A DNA stretch of 64,000 nucleotides from NCBI GenBank assembly GCA_963663275.1, contig OY760183.1:3392001-3456000 (forward strand). The letters are read 5' to 3'. The DNA is from Chloroflexota bacterium (GTDB taxonomy: Bacteria > Chloroflexota > UBA11872 > VXOZ01). Under the pieces are notes generated by a model. It was given only the letters and a program-made list of their open reading frames with translations. It had not been told where the DNA came from and made no database searches. The translations under genes were made by a program, and so were the position numbers. This document shows positions 2,341-23,204 of the stretch, in pieces (positions within the stretch are counted from its first letter, which is position 1; each line of letters opens with the position of its first letter).

Positions 2341-2409
2341 TGCACGAGACAACGACGCAACCGGCAGCCCTTGGTTTACCGCACTCAATAGCCAGAAAGA
2401 TGAAGCGAC

Positions 2410-3374: not shown

Positions 3375-3484
3375 CAGCCTATTCTTCTCTCAACCAAACG
3401 GTGGCATCCCTCAGGATATAGCCTCAACAATGCAAGGCGATAACCCCTTGCGCGCCGGCGCTCAGGCCGCCGCGCGCCGGATAC

Positions 3485-7130: not shown

Positions 7131-7414
7131 ACGCACTCTCCTTCGCGATTCTCTCTTACATGCGGGGCCGGACTGCCGGCGCGTGCCGGGCGGCGCGTCT
7201 AGCGAGACCGCTGTTTGGCTTGATAGTAGCATAGCCGGCGCGGCAGACAGGCGAAGACTCTCTGCTGGGCCATGCGCCCGCCCGCCGCGCGCTCTCGATA
7301 CTGCCTAAGGATCCTCGCAATCAAGACACACCCCACGCCCCAGGCCGGACGCGGGGGTATCGTGGCTCCCGCCAGGCATCATGCGCTGGCTGCACAGCCG
7401 CCGCAGGCGCATCC

Positions 7415-8779
7415 CTAGCCGCCGAGACTGCTCAGGAACGTATCCATGATGGTCTGGAGTTCCACCTCGGTATCCCGCAGCGTCTCCTCGATGGTCTTCT
7501 CGCCGCCCAGCGCGGTTGGCACCACCGCCAGCGTCGCCGCCAGCATTTGCGGCGCGCCAGGCGCGGGAATGACGAAACGCCGGTTCTCCATCATTTCCAC
7601 CGCAATCTGGAGGAAAGGATCATTCTGGTGATACTCTTCTTGGCGGGAGACGTCCGGCCGGATGGGGAGCGTGTTGAAATTGTGCGACCAGCGCACGTTC
7701 ACGTCCCCGCTGCCAAAGTATTCCAGGAACTTCCAGGCGTTTTCCGGCTGCTCGCTCTGGGTGGTCAGGATCCAGGTATGGCAACCGCCGTAGGTCATGT
7801 GGCGGCCGTCCGGCGGCTTGGGCCAATGGGCGAAATGATACTGCACGTCCGGCACATCTCGCTGCATCAGGCCGTGGAGCGTACTCGGCCAGTAGAGATT
7901 GGCCACGTGCCCGTCGTAGAAGAGCAAGTGTGGACGGGTATCCTTGCGGAAGTCCTCAAGCGCCTGCCAGCCGCCCTGCATTTCGTAGATCTTCATGAGC
8001 CAGCGCAGGCCCTCGATGCCCTCCGGCGTATTGATGGTCACCTTGCTCCCATCCTCGCTCAGCGTCTCGCCGCCCAACTGCCACATGGGCACCATCCAGA
8101 TGCTGTTGATCTGCCAAAGCGGCGCGAACGCAACCAGTTCGGTGGTATCGCCGCTGATGCGCGTGAGCTTAGGGATAACGGCTTCGAGTTCTTCCCAGCT
8201 CTCCGGTGGGTTCTCCACGTCCACGCCGTTCTCCAAATAGACATTGTCATTCATGAAGACCGGGCGCACGTCCGGGCCGAACGGCATGCCCTGGATTTGG
8301 CCCTGCCAGGTGAGATCGCGCTGCAGCGACGGCCAGATGTCTTCTCTGCGTACGACCTCGGACATCGCCATGAAGGGACTCAACGGCTGCCCGATCTCCA
8401 GGGCGGCGAGGGTCTGCGCCTGCCACGAGCCGGACTGGCCGATGTCGGGGCCGCTGCCGGCAGCCATAGCGGCCTGCAGTTTAGTGACGCGGTTGCCTTC
8501 GGGAATGGTTGGGTCTACCGTTAGCCCGGGGTTCTGCTCCTCGAATTCCGCCACGACCTCCGCCCCCAGCCCCTCACTAAGCGTCCAGAACGGGACGGTG
8601 AAGATTGTGATCGTGTATGGCTCAGGCGCGGGCGCCTCCGTGGGAGCCGGCTCCGCCGCGGGTTTTTCCTCCATCGTTTCCGCCGGCATCACGGCGGTCC
8701 CGCAGGCCGCCAGCGCAAGCGCTCCGCCCAGACCGCCGGTAGCAGCGAACAGCCGTCTGCGTGTAATTGGCATAGCCAT
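7415..8779 (-). CDS. ABC transporter sugar-type solute-binding lipoprotein
   Basis: ITRRRL...LAAC lipobox; AAGSGPDI; PESWEEL; paralog of 3485-4879. Confidence 0.9.
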   Translation of the reverse strand: MAMPITRRRLFAATGGLGGALALAACGTAVMPAETMEEKPAAEPAPTEAPAPEPYTITIFTVPFWTLSEGLGAEVVAEFEEQNPGLTVDPTIPEGNRVTKLQAAMAAGSGPDIGQSGSWQAQTLAALEIGQPLSPFMAMSEVVRREDIWPSLQRDLTWQGQIQGMPFGPDVRPVFMNDNVYLENGVDVENPPESWEELEAVIPKLTRISGDTTELVAFAPLWQINSIWMVPMWQLGGETLSEDGSKVTINTPEGIEGLRWLMKIYEMQGGWQALEDFRKDTRPHLLFYDGHVANLYWPSTLHGLMQRDVPDVQYHFAHWPKPPDGRHMTYGGCHTWILTTQSEQPENAWKFLEYFGSGDVNVRWSHNFNTLPIRPDVSRQEEYHQNDPFLQIAVEMMENRRFVIPAPGAPQMLAATLAVVPTALGGEKTIEETLRDTEVELQTIMDTFLSSLGG

Positions 8780-8999
8780 GAGTTTGCCTCCTGACTGTAA
8801 AACGAACACTACCGCGCTACGCTATAGAAGAGCATACGCCAGCAACGCAGAATTGTAAATAACTTCCCTATGAGATTCCAATACTATTGGCGCCTGGACA
8901 AATCGCTAAAGCGCCGCAGAGGAGTGTGCGCGTCGTAAGCATCCATACGCAGCATAAAGAGGCGCTTTGTGACCAGCCAAGGCAATCAGCCGGTCCTAA

Positions 9000-9171
9000 G
9001 AACCTGTTTACTATCTGCTTATGAGGGAGTTAGCAAAGCCGATAAAGACCGTTCGTGCTGAGCCTGTCGAAGCATGAACGGCTATTCGCCACCTTGCAAC
9101 GGCTCCGTTCACCCTTCGACAGGCTCAGGGCGAACGGTCCTCGTGCAGACAAAATGATCGTAAACAGGCTC
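9000..9171. mobile_element. MITE (172 bp) with IS5-like terminal inverted repeats and TAA target duplication
   Basis: TAA-GAACCTGTTTACTATC ... GATCGTAAACAGGCTC-TAA; contains an inverted pair of CTGAGCCTGTCGAAG hairpins. Confidence 0.75.
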
Positions 9172-9223
9172 TAAGAGACGCATTTGTGATGACGTCTGGA
9201 GAACTCGCTAATGGATGTCGCCG

Positions 9224-9793
9224 CTAGAAGAAGCTAAAGGCAAAGAGTTCCCGCAGAATCGCCCAGATGCTGCTGTAGACCGCGCCGACCCAGAAGATGC
9301 CGTTCAGGGTGGTGCCGATGACGACCAGCGTGTAGGCGCGCACGCCCTTGATCCGTAGGACCCAGATCAGCGGCACGCCGGCCATGGTGGGACCGGAGAA
9401 GGTGTAGACCGCCAGAATCCCCAGGTCGCGCCGCAGCGCCGACGCGCGAATGAGCCGCCGGATCCGCTCCAGGCGCCGCGTCTTGGCGCGGATCCAGTCC
9501 AGGAGGTCGAGCTCGATGGTGAGCAAATAGAGGAGCGCGCTGTTGAGCACGATCATTACCAGGATGGTAACCGTGGTGGCGACGAAGGCGTTGAAGCGCA
9601 AGATCAGGTAGTTGGAGAATATGGTGACGATGATGTCGATGGACGGCCACAGCACAAGCGTGACCAATCGCCGCAAATACTTCCTGACGGTGAGGCGATC
9701 GACTTTGCGCGGCGAGACGCGGTTGATGGCCATCGTCAAGCGTTCCGCTGGATCTCGGCGACTCTGAGGCGGCTCTGCCAGTGTAGCTGCCAT
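9224..9793 (-). CDS. Hypothetical membrane protein (~4 TM segments)
   Basis: Hydrophobic segments and coding-like codon bias; start uncertain. Confidence 0.65.
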   Translation of the reverse strand: MAATLAEPPQSRRDPAERLTMAINRVSPRKVDRLTVRKYLRRLVTLVLWPSIDIIVTIFSNYLILRFNAFVATTVTILVMIVLNSALLYLLTIELDLLDWIRAKTRRLERIRRLIRASALRRDLGILAVYTFSGPTMAGVPLIWVLRIKGVRAYTLVVIGTTLNGIFWVGAVYSSIWAILRELFAFSFF

Positions 9794-9964
9794 GGGGCAC
9801 CTTTCGTAAACGTTGTGCAGCGACGTCCGCAAGCAAGAGGCTGTTGCGGCGCCCTGAATCCACTATAAAGTGTTTCTTTATTATATTCAAACTACGGATT
9901 ATAAGTCAATAACTTCCTTCGCGTTTACACCCACAATATATGAAACTCTTGATGACTGGTTGCG

Positions 9965-11278
9965 TCAGCGTCCCACCACGGTGTCCATGCCCACCAGCGG
10001 CACGTTGGTGATCAGCGAGGCTTCCAGGCTCAGGGCGCGCAGGTCTTCGGCTTCCAGATCGTGCACGTTCGCTTTGCCGCAGGCCCGCGCCAGCAGTTGC
10101 ATCTCCTGCGTCAGCGTGCCGATGAAGTTCGCCAGGTGGTGCGCGGCGTCCTCGAAACCCGGCAGGTCGGCTACCGCCGCGCGCTCCCGGTCAACGGTGG
10201 AATCCTCGCCCGCGCCGGATTTGTGCGCCGCGCCGCCGTCATGCGGCGCGCCGTCCCGTTCGTCGCCGCAGACCGTCTGCCGCGCCCAGGGTTCCAGGGA
10301 AACGAGCGCGGCGGTGCCAATCGAAACGGCGTCCGCGCCCAGGGCCAGGGCTTTCGCCACGTCGGCACCGCTGCGGATGCCGCCGCAGAGGATCAGATTG
10401 ACCTCGTCCTCCAGCCCCAGGTCCTGCAGCGCGCGCCGCGCCTGGCAGACCGCCGCCATGCCGGGCACGCCGGTGTGCTCGTTCAGGATCGCCGGGCCGG
10501 TGGAAGCGCCGGCTTCCATGCCCTCCACGGTCACGATGTCCGCCCCGGCCTTGGCCGCAAGCTGGACGTCGTCGTAGACGTGGGCGGCGCTGATCTTCAC
10601 GATGATCGGCGCTTGCCAATCGGTGGCTTCCCGCAACTCCTCCACCTTCTTGGGCAGGTCGTCAGACCCTACCCAATCGGGGTGCCGCGTCGGCGAATGG
10701 GAAAGCCGCGAGTAGGCCGTCTCCTCCACCGCCCGCGCCGATTGCGCCGCGCCGGAGCTATTGCCGTAGGGCATGCCGATACTGGGGCTCACGCCCCGCA
10801 CGCTGACAAGCTCGATCACGTCGGCCTGGAGCAGGTGCCGCGGCTGGAAGCCGCTGCGGTGCGGCAGCACTTCATAGGAGAGCAGCGACGCGTACGCGCG
10901 TTCTTCCGCCAACATGCCGCCGTGGCCGGTGGTATAGAGAATGCCGGCGCGGGCGGCGCCGTAGGCCAGCGCGGCGCGCACGGCCGGCGGCAGCAACTTC
11001 GCGCCCATGCCCGCGATGGTCACCGGCGTGCTCAACTCCAGCGGCCGCGCGGCAAAGCGCGCCCCCAGGGCGGTGGCGGTGGTGCACTGCTCGTAGAACG
11101 CCTCCAGGGGCACGCGGCTCAGGGAGCACGGGATGAGCGTGAGGTCGTCGAACGTGGGCAGATTGCGGGACCTGCCCGCGCCCCCTACGCGAAAATGCCC
11201 GGTTTCCGCTTTCTCTTGTATTTCGGCGTACACCTGCGGGGTATAGGTCGCGCCTTCCGTCTCTTCGGTTGCTGCCAT
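9965..11278 (-). CDS. FMN-binding glutamate synthase family protein (GlxD/MgsC-like), degenerate motifs
   Basis: LPTFDDLTL, TRHPDW, PIIVKI, AAKAGAD, GGIRSGADVAKALALGADAV, LEAEDLRAL. The start is the internal ATG (MAATEE). Confidence 0.85.
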   Translation of the reverse strand: MAATEETEGATYTPQVYAEIQEKAETGHFRVGGAGRSRNLPTFDDLTLIPCSLSRVPLEAFYEQCTTATALGARFAARPLELSTPVTIAGMGAKLLPPAVRAALAYGAARAGILYTTGHGGMLAEERAYASLLSYEVLPHRSGFQPRHLLQADVIELVSVRGVSPSIGMPYGNSSGAAQSARAVEETAYSRLSHSPTRHPDWVGSDDLPKKVEELREATDWQAPIIVKISAAHVYDDVQLAAKAGADIVTVEGMEAGASTGPAILNEHTGVPGMAAVCQARRALQDLGLEDEVNLILCGGIRSGADVAKALALGADAVSIGTAALVSLEPWARQTVCGDERDGAPHDGGAAHKSGAGEDSTVDRERAAVADLPGFEDAAHHLANFIGTLTQEMQLLARACGKANVHDLEAEDLRALSLEASLITNVPLVGMDTVVGR

Positions 11279-11286
11279 GGCCGGTA

Positions 11287-11510
11287 TCAACCTCCGGCGC
11301 CTGGGGCGCTCTCTGGGCCGGCGGCGCCAAACGTGCGGAACGGACGCCCGTGCGCCAAGCCGGCGGCGGCGACGATTGCTTCCACGCGCGCGCTCTCTTC
11401 CGGCGTTAGCTCCATTTCCACCACGCCTTCGCCAAGTTGCTCCACCGCGCCGCCGACGAAGATGCGGCCGCCGTTCATGCCGTGGCCCAGCCGCTGGCCG
11501 GCGTTGCCGG
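11287..11510 (-). CDS. 3' fragment of GXGXG (GlxC/MgsB-like) glutamate synthase subunit
   Basis: GNAGQRLGHGMNGGRIFVGGAVEQLG motif; lies directly upstream of the glxD-like gene; 5' part missing at the junction. Confidence 0.75.
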
Positions 11511-12592
11511 TAGCGGCTGAGCTCCAGCCGGGGGAGCCCCTCCAGCGCGCCGGAGACCGTGTCCCAGTCGGCGAGCGGCGCGGGGAAGCCCATCGGCAGG
11601 GCCCCGCGCTCCTCCTTCGCAAGGCGCATCTTCTCCGCGCCGCCTTCCACGTGCCGCGCCGCCTCGACGGTCTCGGAGGGCTCGTTCATCACCACGACGA
11701 CGTCTTCCGGCAGGTGGTCGAGCAGCGTGTGACGCAGCAGGAAGCCGGCGTAGAACGAGGCGTTGTCCAGCGACACCCCGGCGAGCAGGTCGGCCAGTTC
11801 GTCCTGGATGCGGTCGCGCTCCGACGTTCCCGTGTTGGCGAAGTCCAGACCGCGTATCAGTTCGTCGATCCGCTCGTGGTCGGCGATCAGGGGAAGCGTC
11901 TCTCCGGCGGGAAGCACCGTAACCGAGTCCAGGTGCTCGCCGGACCGCTGCGTGTTCGCGTCGAACGCGCGGATCGAGTCGACCTCGTCGCCCCACAGGT
12001 CTATCCGCACGGGGCGGTCGTGCCCCGGCCCGTAGACGTCGACGATGCCGCCGCGCCGCGCCACGGCGCCGGGATGGTCCACCATCGACCCGACGGCGTA
12101 GCCCATGCGCGCCCAGCGGGTCAGCATGGGCTCGACGGCGAGGCGCTGTCCGCGCGTGAGCGTGTGCATCGCGTCCCGCAGCACGGCGGGCGGGAGCGTC
12201 TTCTGCAGGATGCCCGTTACCGACGCGACGATGAGCGCGGGCGCGCCGGCCGTCTGCTGCAGGGCGCCGAGGGCGCGGATGCGCTCGTGCACCGTCCCCG
12301 CTTCCACGGAGAGCCGCTCGTACGGCAGCACCTCCGCCTCCGCGAAGTGCAGCAGCGGAGCGTCCTCGCCGCAGTACGCCTCCAGCTGGTCGAGCAGGCG
12401 CCGCGCGTCGTCAGGATGGGGACAGAGCACCAGCATCGGGCGTCGGAGGTCGCGCCACAGTCCCGCGATCACGAGGGGTTTGGCCGCGTCCGGCGCGACG
12501 GCGGCATGGACGCCGCCGGACGCCACCGCTTCCGTCGTCCGCCTGTAGGCTGACGCCTGCCCAAGCACATCCAGCAGTCCCGTGAGGCTCAA
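11510..12592 (-). CDS. mfd: Transcription-repair coupling factor, N-terminal part only (truncated at junction)
   Basis: EVLPYE, ERIRAL, GAVARRGGIVDVY, RIDLWGDEVDSIRAFDANTQRS (UvrB-homology region). The helicase domains are absent. Confidence 0.85.
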
Positions 12593-12754
12593 GCGGTCCC
12601 TCCGTGCTGTCGCGATAGACGCAGACAAGCGCCCCACGCTCAGATATCGAGGGACGCACTCGTCGCCGGTTAGCCCCGGCATGGGGTTGAGTGTAACAGG
12701 CCGCGCTGTCTCGTTGACGGAGCGGGGGCGCGTCGCTAATGTTCCCTGAGGGTT

Positions 12755-14386
12755 ATGTCGCTTTCACGCTCCCTCCCCATCGCCCGTCTCGCGGCGGTCG
12801 CCTCGTGGCGGCTGCTGCCGTGCGCCGGACTCGCGTGCGCGGCGCTTCTCGTCGCGTCGGCGTGCAGCACGGACGAGCCGACCCCTACTCCTGCGCCTGA
12901 GCCGACGCCGACCCCCACGGTCACGCCGACGCCCGTGCCGACGCCGACGTTCACGCCCGCGCCTCCAACGGCGACGCCGACGCCGAGCCCGACCCCCACC
13001 GCCACTCCGGTCCCGCCGACGGCGACGCCCACTCCCGTTCCGCCCACCCATACGCCCACACCCATCCCGCCCACGCGCACTCCCACGCCGCCGCCCACCG
13101 CAACGGCAACCCCGACCGCCACGGCCACTCCCCTCCCGAAGCCGTGGACCGCGTTCAGGCCCGGCTGGTGGCGTGTGGACGTGGACGTCGTCCCCGGCGT
13201 GTACGTGAGCGAGAGCCTCACCCGGAACTGCGAGTGGATCCGCGCGCATAACGTCCGTGCCCGCGAGGGCGAGGTCATCGCCTCCGGTTCGGCGGACAGC
13301 GGCGTGTTGCGCGTGGCGGTCCTGCCCACCGACACGGCCATCATCACCTCGACCGGCTGCGGCACGTGGACGCTCGAAACGCCCGCAAGCAACCCGCCGC
13401 CCCAGGACTCCGCCTTCTCCCGGCGCAATCAGCCCACGATGCTGAGCAGCAGCGGCGACCACACCTGCGCGCTCCGGCCGGACATGACCGTCGTCTGCTG
13501 GGGGAGCGATGTCTACGAACAGTCGTCGCCCGAGAAGCTCAAGGACAAGAACGACGAACCGCTCCCTCCGGAGGAGCTGCTCTTCACGTCCATCAGCGCG
13601 GGCAGTTTCAACACGTGCGGACTGCGCCCGGACCTCACCTTGCTCTGCTGGGGCGACGACAGCGAAGGGCAGTCGACCCCGCGCGTGCGGGCCACGCCCG
13701 GTATCGGCGATTTCTTCATCGGCCTGGATGTCGGCGCGCTCCACGGGTGCGCGGTGCGCCGCGACTTCACTCCCGTCTGCTGGGGCAGCAACGGGCCTCA
13801 ACTCGCAGGCGTCCCGACTCCCACGCCCGCCAGCACCGACCCGGACTACTGGGACGGCCTGAAGCGCGCCGACCCGCCGCCGAACGAGCGGTTCGACGTG
13901 ATCAGCAGCGGTGGCCAGCACACCTGCGCGCTCCGCAGGGACGGCTCCGCCGTCTGCTGGGGCGACGCTCGCTACGGGCAGACCACGCCGCCGGAGGGCG
14001 GTAAGTACACCGCCATCAGCGCCGGCGGGCTGCACACGTGCGCCATCGATACGGACGGGGCAGCCGTCTGCTGGGGTGCCGACGGGATGGGACAGGCGTC
14101 GCCGCCGCAGGGGGTCAACTTCGGCGCTGTCAGCAGCGGCATCCGGCATACCTGCGCGCTGCGGTCTGACGGGGCAGCCGTCTGCTGGGGCAGCGACGCG
14201 CAGGGGCAGTCGTCCCCGCCGGACCCGGACGCCCGGTACGCGGCCATCAGCAGCGGCGGCGTGCACACCTGCGCGTTGGAGGTGCACGGGACGGCGGTCT
14301 GCTGGGGACGGGATGCGTACGGCCAGGCGTCGCCGCCGGAAGGCGAGAAGTTCGCCGTGGGCCGCACGGGAGCGGTGCAGGGCTGA
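12755..14386 (+). CDS. Lipoprotein with Pro/Thr linker, small Cys-containing domain and RCC1/BLIP-II-like repeats
   Basis: LLVASAC lipobox, (PT)n tract, seven S.G..HTCAL..DG.AVCWG repeats. Confidence 0.88.
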
Positions 14387-14414
14387 GCCTTCGGAACCTG
14401 GTGACATCCGCCTG

Positions 14415-14444
14415 TTGCGCGTTCCGGCGCCCGCCTGACATGAT
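14415..14444 (+). promoter_or_regulatory. Putative sigma70-type promoter upstream of the portal gene
   Basis: TTGCGC-N18-CATGAT with TG extended -10; a weak match only. Confidence 0.35.
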
Positions 14445-14480
14445 GTCTCCGGCGGCACAGGACGGAGCGACACGTCGGGG

Positions 14481-14520
14481 AGAGCCCCGGTCTGAGAGAG
14501 ACCGGGGCTCTTTCGCGTTT
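14481..14520 (+). terminator. Perfect 13-bp hairpin, terminator or attenuator
   Basis: AGAGCCCCGGTCT-GAGAG-AGACCGGGGCTCT followed by TTCGCGTTT. Confidence 0.75.
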
Positions 14521-14566
14521 CGCGAACGTGCGCCGCACACACAGGGACCGGCAAAGGAGGCTGGAG

Positions 14567-15742
14567 ATGCTGGAAACGTTGCGGGAAGTTATGGACGGTA
14601 TCGCGGTGCGGCGGGCGAATGCCCCGCTTGCCGCGTCGCTGCGGACGCTCGCGCCCGACAGGGGCGTGGGGCAGGAGTGGCAGTCGACCGGCTACGGCGA
14701 GTACTACGCGAGGAGCGCCGACGTATACGCGGCGGTGAAGCTCCGTGCGGAGGCGGCGTCCCGTCCGCCGCTGCAGGTGCGGGAGGTCGATGCCTCAGGC
14801 GCGTGGCGCTGGGTGGGGCCGGAGCATCCGGCGCAGCGGCTGCTCGATACGGTCAACGGCTGGTGGAGCAGGAGCGACCTGCTCATCGCCACGGAGACGT
14901 ACCTCTGCTTGTGGGGCGCCGCGTTCTGGTACCTCGGACGCTCGGCGAAAGCGTCAGCGTCCGGCGCGCCGGACGAGATATGGGCGCTGCGCCCCGACCG
15001 TGTGCGGGTCGTGCGCGACCCGGAGCGGTACGTCGCGGGGTTCGTCTACGAGGAGCGGGGACGGGAGACAGCGCTCTTGCCGGAGGAGGTGGTCTGGTTC
15101 CGCTACTTCAACCCGCTGGAGGAGTTCGCCGGGTTCGCGCCGATGGCAGCCGCGCGGCTCACCGCCGACATGGGCATGGACGCGCTGCGGTTCAACCGCG
15201 AGTTCTTCCGCAACGGCGCGCAGCCGCAGGACCTCGTCTTCCGTGCGAGCGGGCCCGTCACCGACGGCCAGCTCACCGAGTTCTTCTCGAAGCTGGAAGC
15301 CCGCCACACCGGGCCGGGCCGGGCGCATCGACCGCTCGTCACCGGCGACGCCTGGGAAGTGCAGCGGCTGGGGCTGAACCAGCGGGACATGGAGTGGCTC
15401 GCCGGACTGCGGTGGAGCCTGGAGGGCGTCGCGCGCGTATACGGCGTCCCGCTGCCGCTGCTGGAGGACTTCAGCCACGCGACGCTCAACAACGTGCGGG
15501 AGGCGCGCCGCATGTTCTGGGAGAAGACGATGGTACCGGAGCTGACGTTCCTCGCGAGCGCGATCAACGAGGGCCTGATGCCGAGGCTCGGCCCGTCGGC
15601 GCGGGGGCTGTCCGTGGCGTTCGACCTCACGCAGGTCGAGGCCCTGTCGGAGACGGAGAGCGAGCGCACCAAGCGGCAGGTGGCGCTCGTGCAGGCAGGC
15701 ATCCTCACGGCGGAGGAGGCACGACGGGAGCGCGGGCTCTAG
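14567..15742 (+). CDS. Phage portal protein, HK97 family (orphan)
   Basis: VYAAVKLRAEAAS.PPL, EHP..RLL..VN, YLCLWGAAFW, LRPDRV.V, EVVWFRYFNP..EFAGFAP, FFRNGA.P, VARVYGVP, ATLNN, GILTAEEAR...GL; AAGGAGG RBS. Confidence 0.92.
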   Translation: MLETLREVMDGIAVRRANAPLAASLRTLAPDRGVGQEWQSTGYGEYYARSADVYAAVKLRAEAASRPPLQVREVDASGAWRWVGPEHPAQRLLDTVNGWWSRSDLLIATETYLCLWGAAFWYLGRSAKASASGAPDEIWALRPDRVRVVRDPERYVAGFVYEERGRETALLPEEVVWFRYFNPLEEFAGFAPMAAARLTADMGMDALRFNREFFRNGAQPQDLVFRASGPVTDGQLTEFFSKLEARHTGPGRAHRPLVTGDAWEVQRLGLNQRDMEWLAGLRWSLEGVARVYGVPLPLLEDFSHATLNNVREARRMFWEKTMVPELTFLASAINEGLMPRLGPSARGLSVAFDLTQVEALSETESERTKRQVALVQAGILTAEEARRERGL

Positions 15743-15772
15743 CCCCGCTCGCGCCCGTCCGGCGTCGCCCCG

Positions 15773-16510
15773 TCATGCGGGAGGAACACCCGTGGCGGGG
15801 CAGAGGTGGTCATAAGCGCTCTTGAAGTCTGCGAGGGTGTCGATGTCGGTCCAGAAGAGGCCCTCTATGTCGCGCGTCGTGACTCCGCACGGCGTGTTTG
15901 CCAGGTGCTGCATCACGCGGCTCAGCTCCAGTGCAGCGCCATCCTGCGCATAGAGGTGGTCGAGGGTGGCGAAGATGGACGGCTGGAAGACGAAGACGCC
16001 GATGTCCACGGCGTTCCAGCGCCGCAGCCCCTTGCCGATGCGCCGGAGGAAGCCGTCGCCGTCCACCAGCACCTTCGTCGCGTCGCTCAACTGGCTCTCC
16101 ATCGACGCAGCCGAGTCCACGCCCAGCATCGCCGGATGCTCGCACTCTCCCATCAGCCGGACGGCAACACCCGGCTCGATGATGTGGTCGCTCATCGCCA
16201 GCATGAACGGCCCGCCTCCCGCGAAGTCCCGCGCGGCGCGGACCGAGACCGCGTTGCCGCCCTCGAACTCCGGGTTGTGGATGAACTCCAGCCGCACCCC
16301 GTCGGGCGCCCAATCGACGAGTCCTTCCATGATCTGCTCCGCCCGGTAGCCGACGACGATGCCGACCTCCCTGATGCCTGCCTCCGCCATGGCGGTGAGC
16401 GGGTACCAGATGAGCGGACGCTCTCTCAGATGTATCAGCGGCTTCGGCGTCCGGTACGTGAATGGCCGGAGTCTGCCGCCGTCACCGGCAGCGAGGATCA
16501 CTCCCTGCAT
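15773..16510 (-). CDS. Sugar-phosphate/NTP nucleotidyltransferase
   Basis: GVILAAGDGGRLRPFT...PKPL signature; WTDIDT. Confidence 0.9.
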   Translation of the reverse strand: MQGVILAAGDGGRLRPFTYRTPKPLIHLRERPLIWYPLTAMAEAGIREVGIVVGYRAEQIMEGLVDWAPDGVRLEFIHNPEFEGGNAVSVRAARDFAGGGPFMLAMSDHIIEPGVAVRLMGECEHPAMLGVDSAASMESQLSDATKVLVDGDGFLRRIGKGLRRWNAVDIGVFVFQPSIFATLDHLYAQDGAALELSRVMQHLANTPCGVTTRDIEGLFWTDIDTLADFKSAYDHLCPATGVPPA

Positions 16511-16615
16511 GGCACGCTCCTTCAGCGTTGTGCTATAGAAGCCTCTCCGCCGGGGGATGGCGGAAGGCGGCGCCCTCATGCTCGCGAGGGCGTGTGAGAG
16601 AACAGCCTGAGGCGG

Positions 16616-18646
16616 TTAAGCCCTGGCCAGCTCCTGGGACCCCTCCACTATCTTCGGAGTCAGGTGCGCAGGGACCTCGCCGTAATGGTCGAACTGCATG
16701 GAGAGGGTCCCGCGTCCCTGTGTGAGCGCGCGCAGATGGGTGGAGTACTGCTGCGCCTCCGATTGAGGCACCTCGGCCTCGATGTGTGCGACGCCGCCCA
16801 CCGGGGTCATGCCCGATATGTGCGCGCGCCGTGTATTCAGGTCGCTCACCACCGCGCCGGCGAACTGCTCCGGCGTCTCGATGGCCATGCGCATCACCGG
16901 CTCGAGCAACGTGGGGGAGGCTTCCACGACTCCTTTCTTCATCGCCATGCTGCCGGCTATCTCGAAACTCTGGCCGGACGAGTCCACGGAATGCGAACTC
17001 CCGTCCGTGAGGACGACCTTCACGTCCACGATGGGGAAGCCCGCGAGTGCGCCCTCCTCCATCGTCTTGTGTATGCCCTTCTCCACGGCGGGGATGTACT
17101 CGCGCGGCACGTTCCCGCCTACGACCTCGGAGGCGAACTCGAAACCCTCGCCCCTGGCGCGGGGCTCCAGCCGGAGCAGCACGTGCCCGTACTGGCCGTG
17201 GCCGCCGGTCTGCTTCTTGTGCTTGTATTCGACGTTCGTTGTCCGGGAGATGGTCTCGCGGTACGCCACGCGCGGCGCGGCGAGCTCCAGCTCGACGCCG
17301 AACTTCCGCTTCGCGCGCTCCGCCATCACTTCTACGTGCGTGTTGCCCTGGCCCGCGATGACCAGCTCGGACGTCGCCTGGTCGCGGTTGAGCACCAGCG
17401 ACGGGTCTTCTTCCGTAAGCCGGGCGAGCGACGAGGAGAGCTTCTCCAGGTCGGCCTTGCTCTTGGGGTGCACGGCGATGCGGAAGACGGGCTCCGGGTA
17501 CTCCACGCGGGGCAGCGAAATGGCATCCGCCTTGGAGGTGAGCGTGTCTCCGGTGACGGCGTGCGCCAGTTTCGAGACGCTGCCGATGTCGCCGGCGGCG
17601 AGGCTCGCGACGCTCTCCTGCTTCTTGCCCACGGGAACGAACACCTGCCCGATGCGCTCGGTGTTGCCCGATCCGGTGTCGAACACCTCGCTGTTCGCGG
17701 AGAACGTGCCGCTCATCACGCGGAAGAACGAGAGCTTGCCGACGAACGGGTCGGCGGTCGTCTTGAAGATGAAGGCTGCGAGCGGGCCGTTCGCGTCGGC
17801 GGTCAGTTCCACGTCCGCGCCGCCCTTCGTGGCCTGCACGGCCGGTACGTCGGCAGGGGAGGGGACGTAGCTCACGATGGCGTCCATCAGCTCCCCGATG
17901 CCCAGTTCGGTGGTGGAAGAGCCGGCCAGCACGGGGACGGTCTGCCCTGTGCGGACGCCGATGCTCAGCCCCTGGGCTATCTCCTCGTCGCTGAGCTCGC
18001 CTTCGTCCAGGAACTTCATCGTCAGGTCGTCGTCGGTCTCCGCTACGGCCTCCCCGAGCTGGTCCTTCGCCGTTGCGATGGCGTCCTCCATCCCGGCGGG
18101 CGCGCTGCCCGAGACGCAACTGGCGACGCCGCTGAAAGAGGACTCCGCGCCGATGGGGAGGTTGATGGGCGCGCACCGGCTCCCGAACTGTGAGCGGACC
18201 TGGGCCATCGTGGCCTCATAGTCGGCATGCTCGCGGTCCATCTTGTTGACGAAGACGATGGTGGGGATGCCTAGGTCGCGGACGCGTTGCCACGCGATCT
18301 CCGCGCCGACTTCCACCCCGCTGGGGGCGGAGAGCACGATTACCGCGGCGTCGGCGGCGCGCAGCGCGGAGACGGTCTCGCCCAGGAAGTCCGCATAGCC
18401 GGGGGTGTCGATCACGTTGATCTTCACGCCCTTCCAGACGCACGGGAGCACTGCGAGCTGCAGGCTGGTCTGCCTGCGATGTTCTTCAGGCTCGAAGTCG
18501 GAGGCGGTGTTGCCGTCCTCGACACGCCCCGGCCGGTTGATGGCCTGGGTCGCGTGGAGCATCGCTTCGGCGAGTGACGTCTTGCCTGCGCCTGAGTGCG
18601 CCAGGAGTACTATGTTGCGGATCTGCTGCGTCGTGAATTGGTCCAC
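16616..18646 (-). CDS. fusA: Elongation factor G paralog (EF-G2-like)
   Basis: AHSGAGKTS, DTPGYADF, NKMD, KKQTGGHGQYG, DGSSHSVDSS, LLEPVM. Isolated from the str operon, with divergent G motifs. Confidence 0.92.
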   Translation of the reverse strand: MDQFTTQQIRNIVLLAHSGAGKTSLAEAMLHATQAINRPGRVEDGNTASDFEPEEHRRQTSLQLAVLPCVWKGVKINVIDTPGYADFLGETVSALRAADAAVIVLSAPSGVEVGAEIAWQRVRDLGIPTIVFVNKMDREHADYEATMAQVRSQFGSRCAPINLPIGAESSFSGVASCVSGSAPAGMEDAIATAKDQLGEAVAETDDDLTMKFLDEGELSDEEIAQGLSIGVRTGQTVPVLAGSSTTELGIGELMDAIVSYVPSPADVPAVQATKGGADVELTADANGPLAAFIFKTTADPFVGKLSFFRVMSGTFSANSEVFDTGSGNTERIGQVFVPVGKKQESVASLAAGDIGSVSKLAHAVTGDTLTSKADAISLPRVEYPEPVFRIAVHPKSKADLEKLSSSLARLTEEDPSLVLNRDQATSELVIAGQGNTHVEVMAERAKRKFGVELELAAPRVAYRETISRTTNVEYKHKKQTGGHGQYGHVLLRLEPRARGEGFEFASEVVGGNVPREYIPAVEKGIHKTMEEGALAGFPIVDVKVVLTDGSSHSVDSSGQSFEIAGSMAMKKGVVEASPTLLEPVMRMAIETPEQFAGAVVSDLNTRRAHISGMTPVGGVAHIEAEVPQSEAQQYSTHLRALTQGRGTLSMQFDHYGEVPAHLTPKIVEGSQELARA

Positions 18647-18772
18647 GATAGGCGCCTCCCCTGTAACGCCGGAGTGGGTTGTGCAGCGCATAATAGTTAT
18701 CAGGCCATGAACGTGCAACGCACAAACGGCAGAGCAGCCGCGGGCGCCCTCAAGTTGAGACAAGGCTGACCG

Positions 18773-20041
18773 ATGCGTGCGCTGACGGGCAACCTTACGC
18801 TCGGCCTGTGGGCGTTGGCGGCCATGCTCCTGATCGCCGCGGGCCTGGGACGCGGCGATTCGGTCGAGCAGCTGCACCGCGCCTCCGCTCCTTACGAGCA
18901 GGACATCCTGCGCTGGGAGATAGTTCACTTCCCGGACAAGTGGTTCAACCTGGCAGTGGGCGTCTTCGGCAGGCCGGACGCGGAGGAACGGCTGGAGCGG
19001 GCGCAGGAGTTCTTCCGTGTGAGCGGGGAGCTGAACGCCAAGCGGCGGGAGATAGAGCGCGTCCTCGCAGAGGGGGCATCGGACGCCGAGGTCGCGCCGT
19101 TGGAGGCGGAGAGAGAACGGCTGGAGCGCCGCCGCGTGGAACTCTCGCCGCTGGTGGAGGAGACGCTGGAAAGCGCCATCTCACAAACCGCCGACGACCT
19201 GGGCGTCATCGCGCGGTTCGGTCCCGGTGCGCTGGCCTCCGGTGGACTTCGCGTTCCAGGAGGGCGGCCACGTGCTGGTGCGCTCGCCCCCGCGACGCCA
19301 TCGTCCGCCTGGACGACCGCCTGCTCACTTCCGACATCAGCCTGCCGGAGCAGGACGAGTTGGAACGGAAGGTGGAATCGCTCGACGACAACATCTCAGC
19401 GATCGTCGCCCGCATCGGCGGGGTGGCGACGTATCCCGCGCAGGTGACGCCGGACACGTCGCTCCGCGGCGCGCTGTTCGTCGCCAGCCACGAGTGGATG
19501 CACCACTGGCTGATCTTCCACCCGCTTGGGACGCGCCTGGTTCGCGGGCGGCGAGCTCACGAGCGTCAACGAGACCGTGGCCAACATCGCGGCGGAGGAG
19601 TTGAGCGACCGGGCGCTGGAACTGCTGACCGGCGAGATGGTAAAGCGCGACCCGTGGCAGCCGCCCAGGGCCGGAGAACCCCGCCCCACGCCCGAGCCGG
19701 GCGTGTTCGACTTCCGGTACGAGATGCGGCAGACCCGCACCCGCCTGGAAGACCTGCTGGATGCAGGGAAGTTGCCGGAGGCGGAGGCGTACCTTGAGGA
19801 ACGCCGCCTGCTCTTCGTGGAGCACGGCTACAACATCCGCAAGCTGAACACGGCGTGGTTCGCGTTCCATGGGACGTACGCGGACAGCTCGGCTGCGCCG
19901 GAAGGGAATCCCGTCGAGGTGCACTTACGCACGATACGCGCCGATTCGGCGGGCCTCGCCGAGTTCCTCGACCGCGTCGCCGTCATCGACGAGGACGGCG
20001 AGTTGGAGCGCATCGCGCGGGAGGCGGGTTGGCGTCCCTAG
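18773..20041 (+). CDS. Secreted gluzincin/aminopeptidase-like protein, split by ~3 frameshifts
   Basis: Pieces in different frames join into signal peptide ... SHEWMHHWL ... NETVANI ... KLNTAWFAFHGTY. Indels near 19225, 19290 and 19530. Confidence 0.6.
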
Positions 20042-20090
20042 TCGCTCCCCACGCTGCTAGAATCCTGCCACTCCCGCCAGTGAGGCTGCA

Positions 20091-22709
20091 TTGCTCCCGA
20101 TTAAGCCTCTCGCTCTCCAACTTCCCTCTCCTACCGCGACGCCGCCCCCACGCTCCACCTGGAGGGCGTCCGCGTAGCGTGCCTCTGCGGGCCGAACGGC
20201 AACGGCAAGTCCGCGCTGCTGGACGCCGTGACGTGGGCGCTCTGGGGCAAGGCGCGCGGCCAGCGGCACGAGCAGCTCCTTCACCACGGCCAGACCGAGA
20301 TGCAGGTCGAGTTGGTGTTCGACGTCGGCAGCGAGCGTTACCGCGTGTCCCCGCCGCTACTCCCAGGCGAGGCGCACCGCCCAGAGTTCGCTGGAGCTGG
20401 CGGTCCAAACTGCCAGTGGGGAGTTCACTACTGCGGGGACCGAGGGCACCGGAGACACCATCCGGGAGACCCAGGCGAGGATCGAACGCCTCATCAACAT
20501 GGACTACGGCACGTTCGTGAACAGCGCGTTCCTCGTGCAGGGACGCGCCGACGAGTTCACGATGGCCACCCCTGGCGTGCGCAAGGACGTGCTCGCCAAG
20601 GTGCTCGGCCTTGGGCGGTACGACGAACTCGCGGAGCGCGCCCGCCTGACCGGGGACGCGACGCACGCGCGAAGCTCGAGCGCCACCGCCGTCAACATCG
20701 ACCGCCTGCGCGAACGCGCCGGGAAGGCCGCCGAGACGCGCGCGGCGCTGGCCGAAGCCGAACGTGAACTCGCCGAGGCGGTTACATACGTGAACGGCCT
20801 CGCGGAGCGGCTGCAACTCCTCCGCGGCAAGGTCGCGCACCTCGAACGGCGGCAGGCGGAGCGGGAGGAGCAGGATGCTGCAGGCGCAAGCGCGCGCGCC
20901 AGCGGCAGGCCGAGGAGGAAGCAGGAGGCGGCGAGATCTCAACCAGCGTCTCGTCGGGTGGCAGCAGCACCATCGAGCGCGCCCCGCGAGATCGAGCAGG
21001 GGGTTGCCGCGTTGCAGGGAGCACGCGAACACGAACGGTCGCTGGCTGAGGCGGCGCGGCAGGCGTACGCGCTCCAGACGCAACTCGCGCCGTTGGAGAA
21101 CGCGATAGGGCAGGCCCGCGCCCGGTTGGAGAGCGACATCCAGTCGCAGCGGCAGCACGTCGACACCCAGCTCACGCCGAGGGCGGAGTCGCTGCCCTCC
21201 ATCCAGCGGCAGCAGGACGAGTTGACGGCGCGGCGGGCGGCGATGGAGAGGCCGCCGGGGCGACGCGGAGCGGGCCGAGGAATCGCGGCGGCAACTCGCG
21301 CTGGAGGCGGAAACGCTCCGGCGGGAGAACGAGCGGTTGCAGCAGGCCGGTATGCAGACGCGCGACAAGCTCGACCCTGCTCAACCACGAGCACGAGGAC
21401 GGCGCGGGCCTGTCCCCTCTGCAACAGTACGCTGGGGCCGGACGGCGTCGTCCGCATACGCGAGTCCTACGAGCGCGAGATTGCGGAGCAGCGGCGAGCG
21501 CTACGCCGCGCAGAAGCAACGCGCGGGGCGAACTGGAGCGGCAGGCCGCCGAGGCCGCGGCGGGCGCGGAGCGCGCGCAGAGCGAACTCGCCGCCGAGCA
21601 GCAGCGCATCGCGGAGGAGCAGAGCCGCCTGACCGTGCAGCGGGAGGAGGCGGAGCGGGCCGTGGAGCAGTTGAAGCAGGCCGTACCTCTGCTCCGGCAG
21701 AATGAGGCCGCGCTTGCGAACCGCGCGTACGCGCAGGATGAGCAGGCGGCGGCGAAAGGGTTGCGGGAAACAGCTTACCGTGCTCTCGTTCGACCCCGCC
21801 GCGCTCAATGCCGCGGAGGCGCAGGTGCAGGAACCTCATCCACTGGGAAGAGGAGCGGCAGGCGCTCGTCACGGCGCGCGAACGCATGGATGACGATACC
21901 GCGGCCCTCGAGGCGTGCCCGCGCCCGTGCGTCGGAGGCGGCGAACGACGCCGTTCGCGCCGAGCAGGCGAGCGCTGCGATAGCGGAGGAGCTGGCGGAA
22001 CTGCCGTCGTGGAACGCGCAGCGTTCGGGCAGGTTGAGGAGCGAATGGCAGAGCCGCTTCCGACCGGCACGCGATCAAGTTGGAGGCGCACAAGGGCTCG
22101 ACTGAAAGAGCGAGATGCAGCAGATCGAGCAAGACTGCCGCCGACCTTGCGCAGGCCGAAGCCCGGCGGGAAACGCTCACCGGCGAAGCGGGCGCCTACG
22201 CGGAGCTTGCGCTCGCGTTCGGCAAGGGCGGCGTGCAGGCGCTTCTGATGGAGGCCGCCATCCCGCGCCTGGAAGACGAGGCCAACGACCTGCTCCGCCG
22301 CATGACGGACGGCAGGATGACGCTGAAGCTGGAGACGCAGAAGGAGCGCAGGAGCGGCGGCGACGCGGTCGAGACGCTGGAGATCGTCATCGCGGACGAA
22401 CTCGGCTCGCGCGCCTACGAGATGTTCAGCGGAGGCGAACGCTTCCGCATCGACTTCGCCGTGCGTATCGCGCTCAGCAAAGTGCTCGCGTGGCGCTCCG
22501 GGGCGCCGCTGCCCACGCTCTTCATCGACGAGGGGTTCGGTACGCAGGACGCCGAGGGGCGCGACCGCATCCTGGAGGTCATCCAGGCGATCGAGGACCG
22601 GTTCGAACGCATCCTCGTCATCACCCACATGGACGACATCAAGGACGCGTTCCCGGTGCGCATTGAGGTCACGCGCGGGCCGAACGGCTCGACGTTCTCG
22701 CTCTCCTGA
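20091..22709 (+). CDS. sbcC: SbcC/Rad50 SMC-family ATPase, many frameshifts (probably sequence errors)
   Basis: Walker A GPNGNGKS, NSAFLVQG, CPLC zinc hook, FSGGE signature, LFIDEGFG Walker B, LVITH. Confidence 0.85.
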
Positions 22710-22793
22710 CGCGCCGGGGGCGCGCCGTCTCGTGTAGCATCGCCTCCGCCGGCGAACGTCGGCGCACACGTTTCACTGACAGGAGGACTGCCC

Positions 22794-23204
22794 ATGACGC
22801 TGCACCAGGCGGAGGAGAGCAAGGCGCGGGGACGCACGGTACGGAAGGCCATCAGCGGGTCGGAGGGGTCGCGAAGCACCGGCAACGCCGCCGGGCTGGA
22901 CATGGTCCCGGGGTTGGAGGACTTCGTCATCGGCTTCAACTTCGGCGAGATATGGTCGCGCGAGCGCATTGACCTCAAGACACGCTGCATGATCGTGCTC
23001 GGCATGATGACGGCGCTGGGGCGCACGCCGCAGGTAGCGGCCTACACGCGCTACGCGCTGCACCTCGGCATCACGCCGGAGGAGATAGCGGAAGTGTTCA
23101 TGCAGGCGATCCCGTACGCCGGGCTGCCCGCCGCGTTCAACGCCATGCAGGCCGGCAGCGACGTCTTCAAGGAGCAGGGCGTCACCGTCAACATGGAGGC
23201 GTAG
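22794..23204 (+). CDS. Carboxymuconolactone decarboxylase family protein
   Basis: FGEIWSR..IDLKTR, GITPEEIAEV, YAGLP. Confidence 0.9.
   Translation: MTLHQAEESKARGRTVRKAISGSEGSRSTGNAAGLDMVPGLEDFVIGFNFGEIWSRERIDLKTRCMIVLGMMTALGRTPQVAAYTRYALHLGITPEEIAEVFMQAIPYAGLPAAFNAMQAGSDVFKEQGVTVNMEA

Follow-up and report, generated by a model that had tools for sequence, protein, structure and literature searches.

A lone HK97-type portal gene in a chimeric Chloroflexota contig and its probable place in a dispersed, host-maintained phage head module of Dehalococcoidia

The portal gene described here is, with a probability of roughly 0.7, a working part of an old, host-maintained, phage-derived head module of a Dehalococcoidia (SAR202-type) clade, and it is solitary in the analysed DNA through an assembly chimera. 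This DNA, called here the window, is a stretch of 64,000 nucleotides (positions 3,392,001 to 3,456,000) of contig OY760183.1, assembly GCA_963663275.1 (G000), deposited as Chloroflexota bacterium. What carries the reading is established in the genomes compared: the parts are homologous to phage head genes, single-copy, dispersed, inherited vertically and under purifying selection, and they share an upstream element. The initial annotation had taken the gene for a domesticated head component of a virion-derived machine split among loci in a Chloroflexota lineage, and single copies in 15/15 genomes, dispersal, co-divergence, purifying selection and the leader hairpin R1 bear this out. As proposed, the module would comprise up to four transcription units with seven genes in all: a TerL-type large terminase (unit 1), the portal (unit 2), an S78 prohead protease with an HK97-fold major capsid protein (unit 3), and p153, a gp6-type adaptor and p95 (unit 4). 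In some genomes these units form one cluster with host genes interspersed, and in the clade nearest to the window they lie hundreds of kb apart, every unit having its own ribosome-binding site, a promoter-like motif of host type and the leader hairpin common to all. Such a module would offer a natural gradation, from genes in one cluster to genes fully dispersed. Conserved and selected across a large uncultured clade of sponge-associated and marine Chloroflexota, it would extend virus domestication to further lineages.

The gene itself is intact, and the initial description of a full 391-aa portal frame with a strong ribosome-binding site is accurate. The translation is free of stops and matches Pfam PF04860 with 205.9 bits (cut-off 39.1), aligning model positions 2-320 of 321; it barely exceeds the cut-off of NCBIfam TIGR01537, portal_HK97 (112.1 against 112.05 bits), and its PHROG matches are to the portal families 2662 and 12. 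It is thus an HK97-type portal, full-length and over curated cut-offs. The surrounding features are collected in Table 1. The product of the upstream RCC1 gene bears at its N-terminus the motif LVASAC, presumably lipobox-like by the usual lipobox rule, and the evidence gathered holds no sign that this gene belongs to the module. The downstream EF-G-type gene is just 47.5% identical to the other EF-G gene of the contig and lacks a syntenic counterpart in the congeners compared. Homologues of the portal were found by tblastn at 33 loci with 61-97% identity (the highest at locus L021), 32 of them full-length or nearly so and one spanning residues 35-391; their titles read Dehalococcoidia bacterium, SAR202 cluster bacterium, or Chloroflexota/Chloroflexi bacterium. 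Contigs of a metatranscriptome library (run X19) cover parts of the portal and are about 94-95% alike; they come from a relative, DNA carry-over is possible, and they are not evidence of portal transcription.

Table 1. Features around the portal gene, in window coordinates
Feature	Position	Strand	Basis and remarks
Chimeric junction, lineage A (host genus) left, lineage B block right	11509..11509	.	synteny and public contigs
Lineage-B Mfd-like gene (~1200 aa), 5' part only, truncated at the junction	11512..12682	-	UvrB_inter domain
RCC1-repeat putative lipoprotein gene, syntenic 5' neighbour of the lone portal	12755..14386	+	domain search
Promoter-like motif GTGACAY-N7-TTNCG	14401..14419	+	sequence motif; 5' of the hairpin
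Terminator-like hairpin (model R1), GC-rich stem then U-rich run	14470..14522	+	covariance model; ends 44 nt before the portal ATG
Shine-Dalgarno AAGGAGG	14554..14560	+	read directly; 6 nt 5' of the portal ATG
Portal gene, HK97-type, intact	14567..15742	+	ORF translation; Pfam, PHROG and NCBIfam profiles
NTP_transferase gene, 3' of the portal	15773-16579	-	domain search
EF-G-type gene, 3' of the portal	16616-18928	-	domain search

The window passes from one lineage to another, unrelated one at the junction. On the left, congeners of the nominal host match window 6000-11510 with 75-89% identity and show no syntenic match beyond it; in three of them, conservation resumes about 5 kb further on, with the segment that opens the contig. 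On the right, synteny with the putative fusA, a check suggested with the first description, was found in 18 loci that keep the order RCC1, portal, EF-G; 16 of the 18 begin to match at window 11505-11509, and the remaining two are cut by contig ends. The lineage-B block is about 127 kb long and extends past the window to G000:3530343, and the segment G000:3403509-3530343 is colinear with a Dehalococcoidia/SAR202-type chromosome (G061), with segments 79-96% identical. The block begins within a gene for which uvrB was considered and dropped, this being the N-terminus of a ~1200-aa Mfd-like gene; we take it to be Mfd from its UvrB_inter domain and length, and it is present as a single copy in 20/20 genomes, with open frames of 1183-1393 aa. 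The RCC1, NTP_transferase and EF-G genes do flank the portal as initially described, but they are not the named organism's own neighbourhood. The portal was first interpreted as a strain-specific orphan in a large genomic island, on the grounds of the synteny break and of a portal count of 0/16 in the host genus. This interpretation was dropped when synteny, the colinearity with G061 and a public contig identified the island as a piece of another lineage's chromosome. The contig in question (run X3, 2855 nt) shows 0 differences over 10154-11509 and thereafter diverges from the window; by eye, 28 of the 30 shown letters of its loose end agree with the continuation in congener G011.

A genuine recent horizontal acquisition of the 127-kb block by the host strain, which would leave the lone portal a true orphan, is improbable. 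It would suit an assembly that consists of a single 3.53-Mb contig, and contigs of other runs cannot prove absence from the source strain. However, the genes at both sides of the join are truncated, ~4.7 kb of the host lineage is missing and the block stops ~840 bp short of the contig end. The zero-difference contig on the left goes on with congener-type sequence, none of the contigs in the four runs searched bridges 11509 (window stretches without cover in these runs being uninformative), and the block genes have no match, or only amino acid matches of 25-63%, in the rest of the contig. A single-contig MAG can therefore conceal a 127-kb chimeric insert. The chimera also accounts for the apparent solitude of the portal, since the contig carries only this fragment of the lineage-B genome. 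Profiles PF05065, PF04586, PF03354 and PF20441 gave zero matches at E<=0.1 in the window and in the whole contig, and a tblastn search of the contig with the TerL, protease, capsid, p153 and adaptor of a related cluster left the portal as the sole match. A second, weak portal-like match lies at G000:334111-334740 (22.4 bits, under the cut-off). The lack of other head genes, as first noted, thus holds for window and contig; it is a property of the foreign fragment and fails for the portal's true genome, the set being found in 15/15 genomes of its lineage. In the same way, absence from close relatives, which had been named as grounds for refutation, applies to the 16 nominal congeners as an artefact of the chimeric assembly, while all 15 genomes of the true lineage carry the portal.

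The head genes were sought in these 15 genomes, as the initial annotation had recommended for related Dehalococcoidia and SAR202 genomes; nearly all genomes compared in this work are MAGs. One portal locus was recovered from each, and the PF05065 capsid, the PF04586 (S78) protease and the adaptor occur once per genome in 15/15. Protease and capsid lie side by side in all of them (tblastn), the protease match being ~1 kb 5' of the capsid match in the five genomes in which coordinates were compared, and p153 and p95 adjoin the adaptor; a head-gene cluster was annotated at locus L037. The adaptor is a 272-aa protein of the gp6 head-to-tail type, whose predicted model (pLDDT 81.5) has matches to neck proteins of phages and of RcGTA, among them the RcGTA chains 6tba_2A, 6toa_C and 6te8_B (E 2.6e-3 to 1.7e-2). 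The p153 protein is a jelly-roll, decoration- or cement-like protein with a marginal PHROG match only (E 0.0098), and p95 has no PHROG match. A fusion of p153 with the adaptor (433-aa ORF in G061) is not claimed, for database gene calls give a separate 273-aa protein. The cell therefore encodes virion structural genes of phage origin: TerL-type terminase, portal, S78 protease, HK97 capsid and adaptor. Their arrangement varies widely, with a portal-capsid spacing from ~2-6 kb up to ~2 Mb; the head units lie 0.2-2 Mb apart in 9/15 genomes and form a single cluster in some others. With units up to megabases apart, one head could presumably not carry the whole gene set. Lone 'phage' genes in MAGs can thus belong to dispersed systems that prophage finders miss.

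The head genes are inherited vertically with the host and are kept by purifying selection, as judged from sequence comparison. The N-terminal part of the Mfd-like gene (Mfd-N) served as the host marker, and the Mantel correlation of each head gene with it was 0.90-0.97, with 0/2000 permutations as high. The portal locus is syntenic with host genes in at least 16 species, and in the syntenic set the dS of the portal (0.51) lies among those of the flanking genes (0.45-0.72). A dN/dS check had also been proposed at the outset, and it points to purifying selection: the portal value is 0.081 in the 19-sequence syntenic set, against 0.166 for its RCC1 neighbour. Median values across the 15 genomes are 0.130 for the portal, 0.194 for the capsid, 0.214 for the protease, 0.251 for p153, 0.274 for p95 and 0.328 for the adaptor, against 0.246 for Mfd-N. 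Were the module an inert relic, the head genes would be slowly decaying leftovers of one old prophage, scattered by rearrangements, and there are individual breaks of the kind expected: in G070 the TerL is split into three pieces and holds one TGA, in G068 one TAG interrupts the adaptor, and L062 retains portal residues 1-245 only. The failure to find the head-linked TerL in 9/15 genomes, and tail genes with three families, would also fit. Decay of this kind is nevertheless hardly credible. Apart from the breaks in G070 and G068, the head genes are open and single-copy across the 15 genomes; their dN/dS stays close to that of the host marker although dS is about 0.7-0.9; constraint on the lone portal exceeds that on its three neighbours in the syntenic set; and a private hairpin is kept 5' of all four units in six genomes.

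This hairpin was spotted by eye and then modelled, exact k-mer sharing of three upstream regions having yielded almost nothing. At the window portal the covariance model R1 scores 60.2 bits (E 2.5e-11), the sole place in the 64-kb window, and the 114-nt portal leader folds at -56.5 kcal/mol (z -4.43). One additional match in the window is the reverse-strand echo of the same place. R1 was found at four places each in G061, G063, G064, G073 and G074, and at five in G062, two of which are TerL-like copies; every place lies directly 5' of the portal, of protease-capsid, of p153-adaptor-p95 or of a TerL-like gene. None was found elsewhere in the six window-like genomes (2.7-3.3 Mb) among the 150 candidates scored per genome, out of some 1,600-4,600 first-look candidates. 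The hairpin is not universal, given that R1 was not found in G065, G066, G069 and G072, nor in the tested second-clade and far-relative loci (L054-L061, L132-L136 and L157-L161). Covariation supports the hairpin only weakly, as compensatory changes affect 1/11 pairs and most pairs are invariant. Rfam holds no family at this place; its single match in window 12000-19000 is a chance miRNA (E 0.26). In the six window-like genomes each unit is thus preceded by a private leader hairpin together with a promoter-like motif that is lineage-wide. In 438 kb of lineage-B DNA the motif occurs 28 times, compared with a mean of 3.7 in shuffles, and it was accordingly rejected as a regulon-specific signal; it is a general motif of the lineage and may act as a promoter. 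The hairpin may co-regulate the units by conditional termination or antitermination, and it would offer a concrete handle for regulators and co-regulation.

The terminase behaves differently from clade to clade. A head-linked TerL orthologue was not found in the window-like clade (six genomes), G065, G066 and G072, where the best matches reach 52-57%, and the sole terminase candidates in these 9/15 genomes belong to a TerL-like family that is multi-copy and apparently mobile. According to one alternative, the head genes are the capsid provider for selfish TerL elements, and the hairpin is a pac-like recognition or mobility site. Such elements would explain the 5-29 TerL-like matches per genome, the repeat unit that is essentially the gene alone, the orthologous copies of four species that have the gene in common and not the flanks (dN/dS 0.16-0.33), the hairpin-bearing copies (two in G062) and the position of the family in the tree as sister to the head-linked TerL. 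The alternative is nonetheless very unlikely: the TerL-like units showed no transposase, terminal repeats or target duplications, the short flanking repeats are general to the genome, a hairpin with a U-run 5' of a ribosome-binding site resembles a leader terminator, and most TerL-like copies have no R1 match.

As regards the function of the host-maintained head module, its units may together assemble DNA-filled capsids that serve the host in a GTA-like way. A GTA proper packages host DNA, in amounts too small to hold its own genes, and delivers it to other cells. The tail families PF10145, PF04984 and PF06199, the three searched, had matches in 0/5 genomes, and the module may be tailless. Two far relatives (G281 and G265) have a tail-terminator-like gene of 143-144 aa (phrog_17840, E 5e-6 and 9e-9), and their 529/534-aa gene has no PHROG match. 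Exaptation for something other than gene transfer, be it a capsid compartment, a DNA-sequestering shell or anti-phage interference with HK97-type assembly, is unlikely, despite a head-only set without tail genes detected by three families, a seemingly host-type regulation (general promoter-like motif plus leader hairpin) and the presence in the same order of related functional myovirus-type prophages (L161) with which to interfere. The retained portal, TerL-type ATPase-nuclease and gp6-type adaptor point instead to DNA packaging and neck closure, a plain compartment would need none of them, and no defence-system neighbours were seen. A more far-reaching version of the preferred reading can be put forward only tentatively: an order-wide, vertically inherited, tail-less, head-only viriform, with seven phage-derived genes spread over four units, each under its own promoter and all tied into one regulon by the private hairpin, and a terminase function passed to proliferating mobile TerL paralogues. 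If true, sponge-associated SAR202-type Dehalococcoidia would make DNA-filled tailless capsids, either to export or exchange DNA in a novel way or to carry the TerL elements.

Among known systems, RcGTA of Rhodobacter capsulatus is similar in having phage-derived TerL, portal, prohead protease, HK97-fold capsid and gp6-type adaptor, and in being host-maintained, vertically inherited, under purifying selection and encoded at more than one locus, a number of its genes being located away from the main cluster. The module differs in belonging to another phylum, in core head genes split unit by unit over up to megabases, in the lack of tail genes found with three families, in a terminase that comes, in the window-like clade, from a multi-copy family, and in the private leader hairpin of each unit. 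To our knowledge, GTAs have been characterised only from a few lineages (several Alphaproteobacteria, Brachyspira, Desulfovibrio and Methanococcus). The head-only viriform, if true, would be without precedent as a GTA-like system of Chloroflexota and also in the dispersal of the core head genes themselves. In the part of the literature covered by our search, neither a GTA nor a conserved head module is described for Chloroflexota, Dehalococcoidia or SAR202; a paper that gives 15 kb for the RcGTA region and 4-4.5 kb for its cargo contains neither 'Chloroflex' nor 'Dehalococc' in its main text (PMC13669383).

Defective prophage remnants share with the module prophage-derived genes kept by selection in host lineages. 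Vertically inherited remnants under purifying selection have reportedly been described in enterobacteria. Such remnants are contiguous and confined to species or genera, whereas the module is a seven-gene set across an order-level sample, physically dispersed and with a shared cis element. It is not a functional prophage either, its units being dispersed, flanked by host genes and present in 15/15 genomes; such a prophage would combine integrase, replication, lysis and tail modules in one contiguous genome and be patchy among relatives. The cf-PICIs also have a head-only set (terminase, portal, protease, capsid and connectors) without tail genes, and in this they resemble the module. A PICI is a compact mobile island that carries an integrase and att sites and is patchy among relatives; the module, in contrast, forms no island, its dispersed units are syntenic with host genes and co-diverge with the host, and no integrase lies beside them in the annotated loci. 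Encapsulins likewise place an HK97-fold shell protein in a cellular genome. As far as we know, they have a cargo gene next to the shell gene and lack portal, terminase, prohead protease and adaptor, all of which the module conserves along with its capsid.

The module reaches well beyond the window-like genomes. In a 301-genome sample of the order of G061, a portal homologue is present in 116, in most of them once, and PF05065 matches 98 of the 116 as well. In a second clade, TerL and portal are paired in a setting of ABC-transporter and peptidase genes, and the single capsid gene lies 0.1-1.1 Mb away in 5/5 genomes. The public runs that contain the clade are mostly sponge metagenomes. The same order harbours the myovirus-type prophage L161 (genome G116), whose portal, protease and capsid are 39%, 37% and 50% identical to the module proteins, and which differs in its TerL family (phrog_38), in having Neck1, a tail terminator and a 1076-aa sheath protein, and in carrying all of these on one strand, with the tail genes adjacent. 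A prophage of this type is a plausible kind of ancestor for the module. In G116, the L161 type of portal occurs at three places, two of them with identical scores.

The portal gene reported in the initial annotation is real, and its genomic context is an assembly artefact. The open frame matches Pfam Phage_portal from end to end (205.9 bits, cut-off 39.1), the PHROG portal families 2662 and 12 and, just over cut-off, NCBIfam portal_HK97, and AAGGAGG lies 6 nt 5' of its ATG. The neighbours are also as first described: upstream, an RCC1-repeat protein whose N-terminus is lipobox-like and, on the opposite strand downstream, a nucleotidyltransferase gene and an EF-G-type gene. The part of the description that fails, given the join at window 11509, is that this housekeeping setting is the organism's own. 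The further remark that no other head gene exists in the window is true of the whole assembly (G000, a single contig of 3,531,182 bp), in whose whole length HK97 capsid, S78 protease, TerL ATPase and TerL nuclease found no match, but not of the portal's real lineage, where capsid, protease and adaptor genes are present in 15 of 15 genomes. The sole other portal match in G000 is a sub-threshold one to Phage_portal (22.4 bits, locus L002), within an open frame of 443 aa on the host side of the contig.

The portal was found in none of the 16 other genomes of the assembly's genus, and among 44 more genomes of its class it occurs only once, at 27% identity. The DNA of window 6000-11510 is kept in the congeners at 75-89%; past window 11510 no syntenic sequence is left in them. 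In three congeners the homologue of the contig's first kilobase comes approximately 5 kb further on, so that about 128 kb of the contig has no counterpart there. A scan of species-representative genomes returned 43 loci encoding portal relatives, 33 of them with a homologue at 61-97% identity (32 full-length or nearly so), and the record titles of all 33 read Dehalococcoidia bacterium, SAR202 cluster bacterium or Chloroflexota/Chloroflexi bacterium. Sixteen loci resemble the window at the nucleotide level (79-94%) from window 11505-11509 onwards, through RCC1, portal, nucleotidyltransferase and EF-G; two further syntenic loci end at contig ends. G000:3403509-3530343 runs colinear with 125 kb of the chromosome of G061, a genome of this Dehalococcoidia/SAR202-type lineage (lineage B), in segments 79-96% identical; against the rest of the G000 contig the genes of the block have either no match or one of 25-63% at the amino acid level.

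Public sequencing runs bear directly on the junction. One contig of run X3 (2855 nt, depth about 91) shows 0 differences to window 10154-11509, after which its remaining 1499 nt no longer resemble the window; of the 30 letters shown of this loose end, 28 agree by eye with the continuation in the congener G011. A contig of the RNA library X19 matches window 11509-11731 and then diverges in the other direction, and none bridging window 11509 was found in four public runs. Since the X3 contig carries on like the congener and no bridging contig appears, window 11509 is a chimeric assembly join with a probability of roughly 90%, a point which the public runs settle as far as contigs can; a real transfer of the block is left as a minority alternative. 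With the assembly join, the last ~127 kb of G000 belongs to a different organism, and the ORF spanning the junction, an Mfd-like N-terminus from one lineage fused to a glutamate-synthase-domain C-terminus from the other, is an artefactual in-frame fusion.

Coordinates of the features discussed
Feature	Position	Strand	Remarks
~180-bp repeat	window 8996-9175		
Join-spanning ORF	window 9965-12682	-	905 aa; junction at 11509
RCC1-repeat protein gene	window 12755-14386		543 aa
Motif GTGACAY-N7-TTNCG	window 14401-14419		27 other places in 438 kb of lineage-B DNA; about 7.6-fold over shuffles
R1 hairpin	window 14470-14522	+	single occurrence in the 64-kb window
Portal ORF	window 14567-15742	+	391 codons, open frame
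Sub-threshold portal match (L002)	G000:C1:334111-334740	-	
DUF7700 gene	L037:11229-11624	-	
RCC1-repeat protein gene, G061	L131:3273-7739		1488 aa
Myovirus-type prophage (L161)	G116:C1:2334000-2353999		

The rest of the head was found in fifteen genomes of the true lineage (G061-G075, mostly chromosome-level), which were reached via the portal loci. Each contains exactly one PF05065 capsid match above cut-off, one S78 protease match and one homologue of a 272-aa protein (with a TAG in G068). In the five genomes whose coordinates were compared, the capsid match comes ~1 kb downstream of the protease, and the two are adjacent by tblastn in all 15; the 272-aa gene is preceded by a 153-aa gene (p153) and followed by one of 90-102 aa (p95). 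In the full cluster of locus L037 the order is TerL-type gene (phrog_2, E 7e-33), portal, a DUF7700 gene on the other strand, protease, capsid (also TIGR01554, 71.5 bits), an alpha/beta hydrolase, p153, the 272-aa protein and p95, then F420 ligase. The DUF7700 gene is kept directly beside the portal in three full-cluster genomes (L037, L038, L039) and stands 1.3 kb downstream of it in L053. In its predicted fold (pLDDT 81.5) the 272-aa protein is similar to phage and RcGTA head-to-tail adaptors and to 'Gp6 domain' proteins, and it has a beta domain inserted. The p153 model (pLDDT 85.4) combines an Arg-rich tail and a jelly-roll, and its phage matches, which include cement/decoration proteins, are weak (E about 1e-3, TM 0.4-0.6).

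According to the coordinates of the portal, capsid, protease and adaptor matches, the genes form one cluster in G067-G070 and G075 (portal to capsid about 2-6 kb), lie ~18 kb apart in G066, and are dispersed by 0.2-2 Mb in G061-G065 and G072-G074; G061, for instance, has its capsid gene at 1.45 Mb, its portal at 1.68 Mb and its adaptor at 1.90 Mb. G071 is intermediate, its p153-adaptor unit being 5 kb from the portal and a capsid-protease-TerL group ~340 kb off. RCC1-repeat proteins adjoin both the lone portal and, in G061, the p153-adaptor unit, which may be a coincidence or may reflect a connection such as a surface or fibre role.

When the 15 genomes are compared in pairs, the protein distances for portal, protease, capsid, p153 and adaptor correlate with those for the host marker, the Mfd-like N-terminus, at r 0.90-0.97, and among themselves at r 0.86-0.94; none of 2000 permutations reached the observed correlations, an outcome to be read as a pattern and not as a p-value, as related genomes are not independent. 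Together with the single copies in 15 of 15 genomes, the correlation with the host marker supports the proposal of a domesticated, split head system in a Chloroflexota lineage. The median dN/dS in these genomes is 0.130 for portal, 0.194 for capsid, 0.214 for protease, 0.251 for p153, 0.274 for p95 and 0.328 for the adaptor, with 0.246 for the host marker. The pairs listed above 0.6 (six per gene at most) involve G062 or G071, whose records have in-frame stops in the host-marker analysis, except two p95 pairs with G069 (0.60-0.62). In a 19-sequence syntenic set the lone portal has a median dN/dS of 0.081 at dS 0.51, and its neighbours 0.116 (EF-G), 0.190 (nucleotidyltransferase) and 0.166 (RCC1) at dS 0.45-0.72, where some sets hold the same gene under two locus ids, duplicates which the 15-genome analysis does not have. 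Literature searches found no description of this system.

Clear orthologues of the head-linked TerL (62-97%) occur in G071 and wherever a cluster-bearing locus includes the gene; that of G070 is in three pieces with one TGA. In the remaining nine genomes the best matches reach 52-57% and are multiple (5-13 per genome). Over G061-G075 this multi-copy family (L123-L130, L079-L087) consists of single-gene units under purifying selection with species-specific flanks and 5-29 matches per genome, the maximum being in G075; the ~2-kb repeated unit of G065 is essentially the gene alone. Pfam recognises these genes only faintly as T4-type terminases (Terminase_6N, 24.7 bits in one copy). In a tree, with the TerL of a second portal clade as outgroup, the head-linked TerLs and two multi-copy sets form sister groups; several branches are long. 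One orthologous copy in G061, G063, G073 and G074 is 85-89% identical in nucleotides over the gene, without shared flanks, at dN/dS 0.16-0.33.

In the window-like genomes (G061-G064, G073, G074), the regions upstream of portal, protease and p153 share, by eye, a GC-rich hairpin and then a U-rich run; simple patterns placed it at head units only, within about 440 kb of lineage DNA. A covariance model (R1), built from 25 copies and searched against whole genomes, found four places in each of these genomes except G062, which has five, every one directly upstream of a portal, protease, p153 or TerL-like gene (two TerL-like copies in G062), and no others except reverse-strand echoes. The hairpin marks only one or two TerL-like copies per genome. 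Start codons follow it by 19-44 nt in G061. R1 precedes protease, p153 and TerL-like paralogues, not the head-linked TerL, in cluster-bearing genomes, and portal, protease and p153 in G071; it had no match in G065, G066, G069 and G072, nor in the second-clade and far-relative loci tested. The leader of the window portal folds at -56.5 kcal/mol (z -4.4), the stem hardly varies in sequence and shows one compensatory pair, and Rfam has no family there. Each hairpin is preceded, at a distance of about 70-85 nt, by a motif common across the lineage (28 copies; 3.7 in shuffles), which is probably its ordinary promoter element. Each unit would carry a promoter of the host and, after it, a conditional terminator common to the units; alternatively, the hairpin could be a recognition or mobility site. 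The working of the hairpin, the task of any particles and the presence or absence of a tail are inferences.

Regarding breadth, portal homologues (E<=1e-20) occur in 116 of 301 sampled genomes of the order of G061, mostly one per genome, seven at 79-96% identity and the rest at 28-54%, and PF05065 matches in 143. Both are present in 98 genomes, the portal only in 18, the capsid only in 45 and neither in 140. In 71 genomes compared that have both on one contig, the distance is <10 kb in 25, 10-25 kb in 12, 25-100 kb in four and >100 kb in 30. Many of the matches listed for the capsid-only genomes (e.g., G105, G109, G257, G305; 1.4-3.2 Mb) are open frames of ~300-390 aa; they make up a second kind of HK97-fold gene in the order, possibly outside the head module. 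In the second clade (portal about 50% identical), TerL and portal stand as a pair whose synteny with host genes, ABC-transporter and peptidase genes among them, is conserved; the capsid gene is single and lies 0.1-1.1 Mb away in 5/5 genomes. The far relatives G281 and G265 have compact modules in which this gene order is kept and a tail-terminator-like gene and a gene of 529/534 aa without assignment are added, and G346 and G216 the order protease-capsid-adaptor-139 aa (partial in G216)-portal. None of five module-bearing genomes had a match to the tape-measure, sheath or Phage_tail_2 families. An undomesticated relative is exemplified by the myovirus-type prophage of G116 (TerL phrog_38, portal, protease, capsid, adaptor, Neck1, tail terminator and a 1076-aa sheath protein), related to the module in portal (39%) and capsid (50%); its portal type occurs at three places in G116, two with identical scores.

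Two minor observations concern the window. Composition is unusual at 20000-23000 and 45000-47000 (AT skew 0.21-0.23 at ~70% GC, GC dip to 0.56). The ~180-bp repeat has at least 17 further copies at 85-93% identity in G000, and copies in congeners too, and resembles a MITE-type element belonging to the host lineage.
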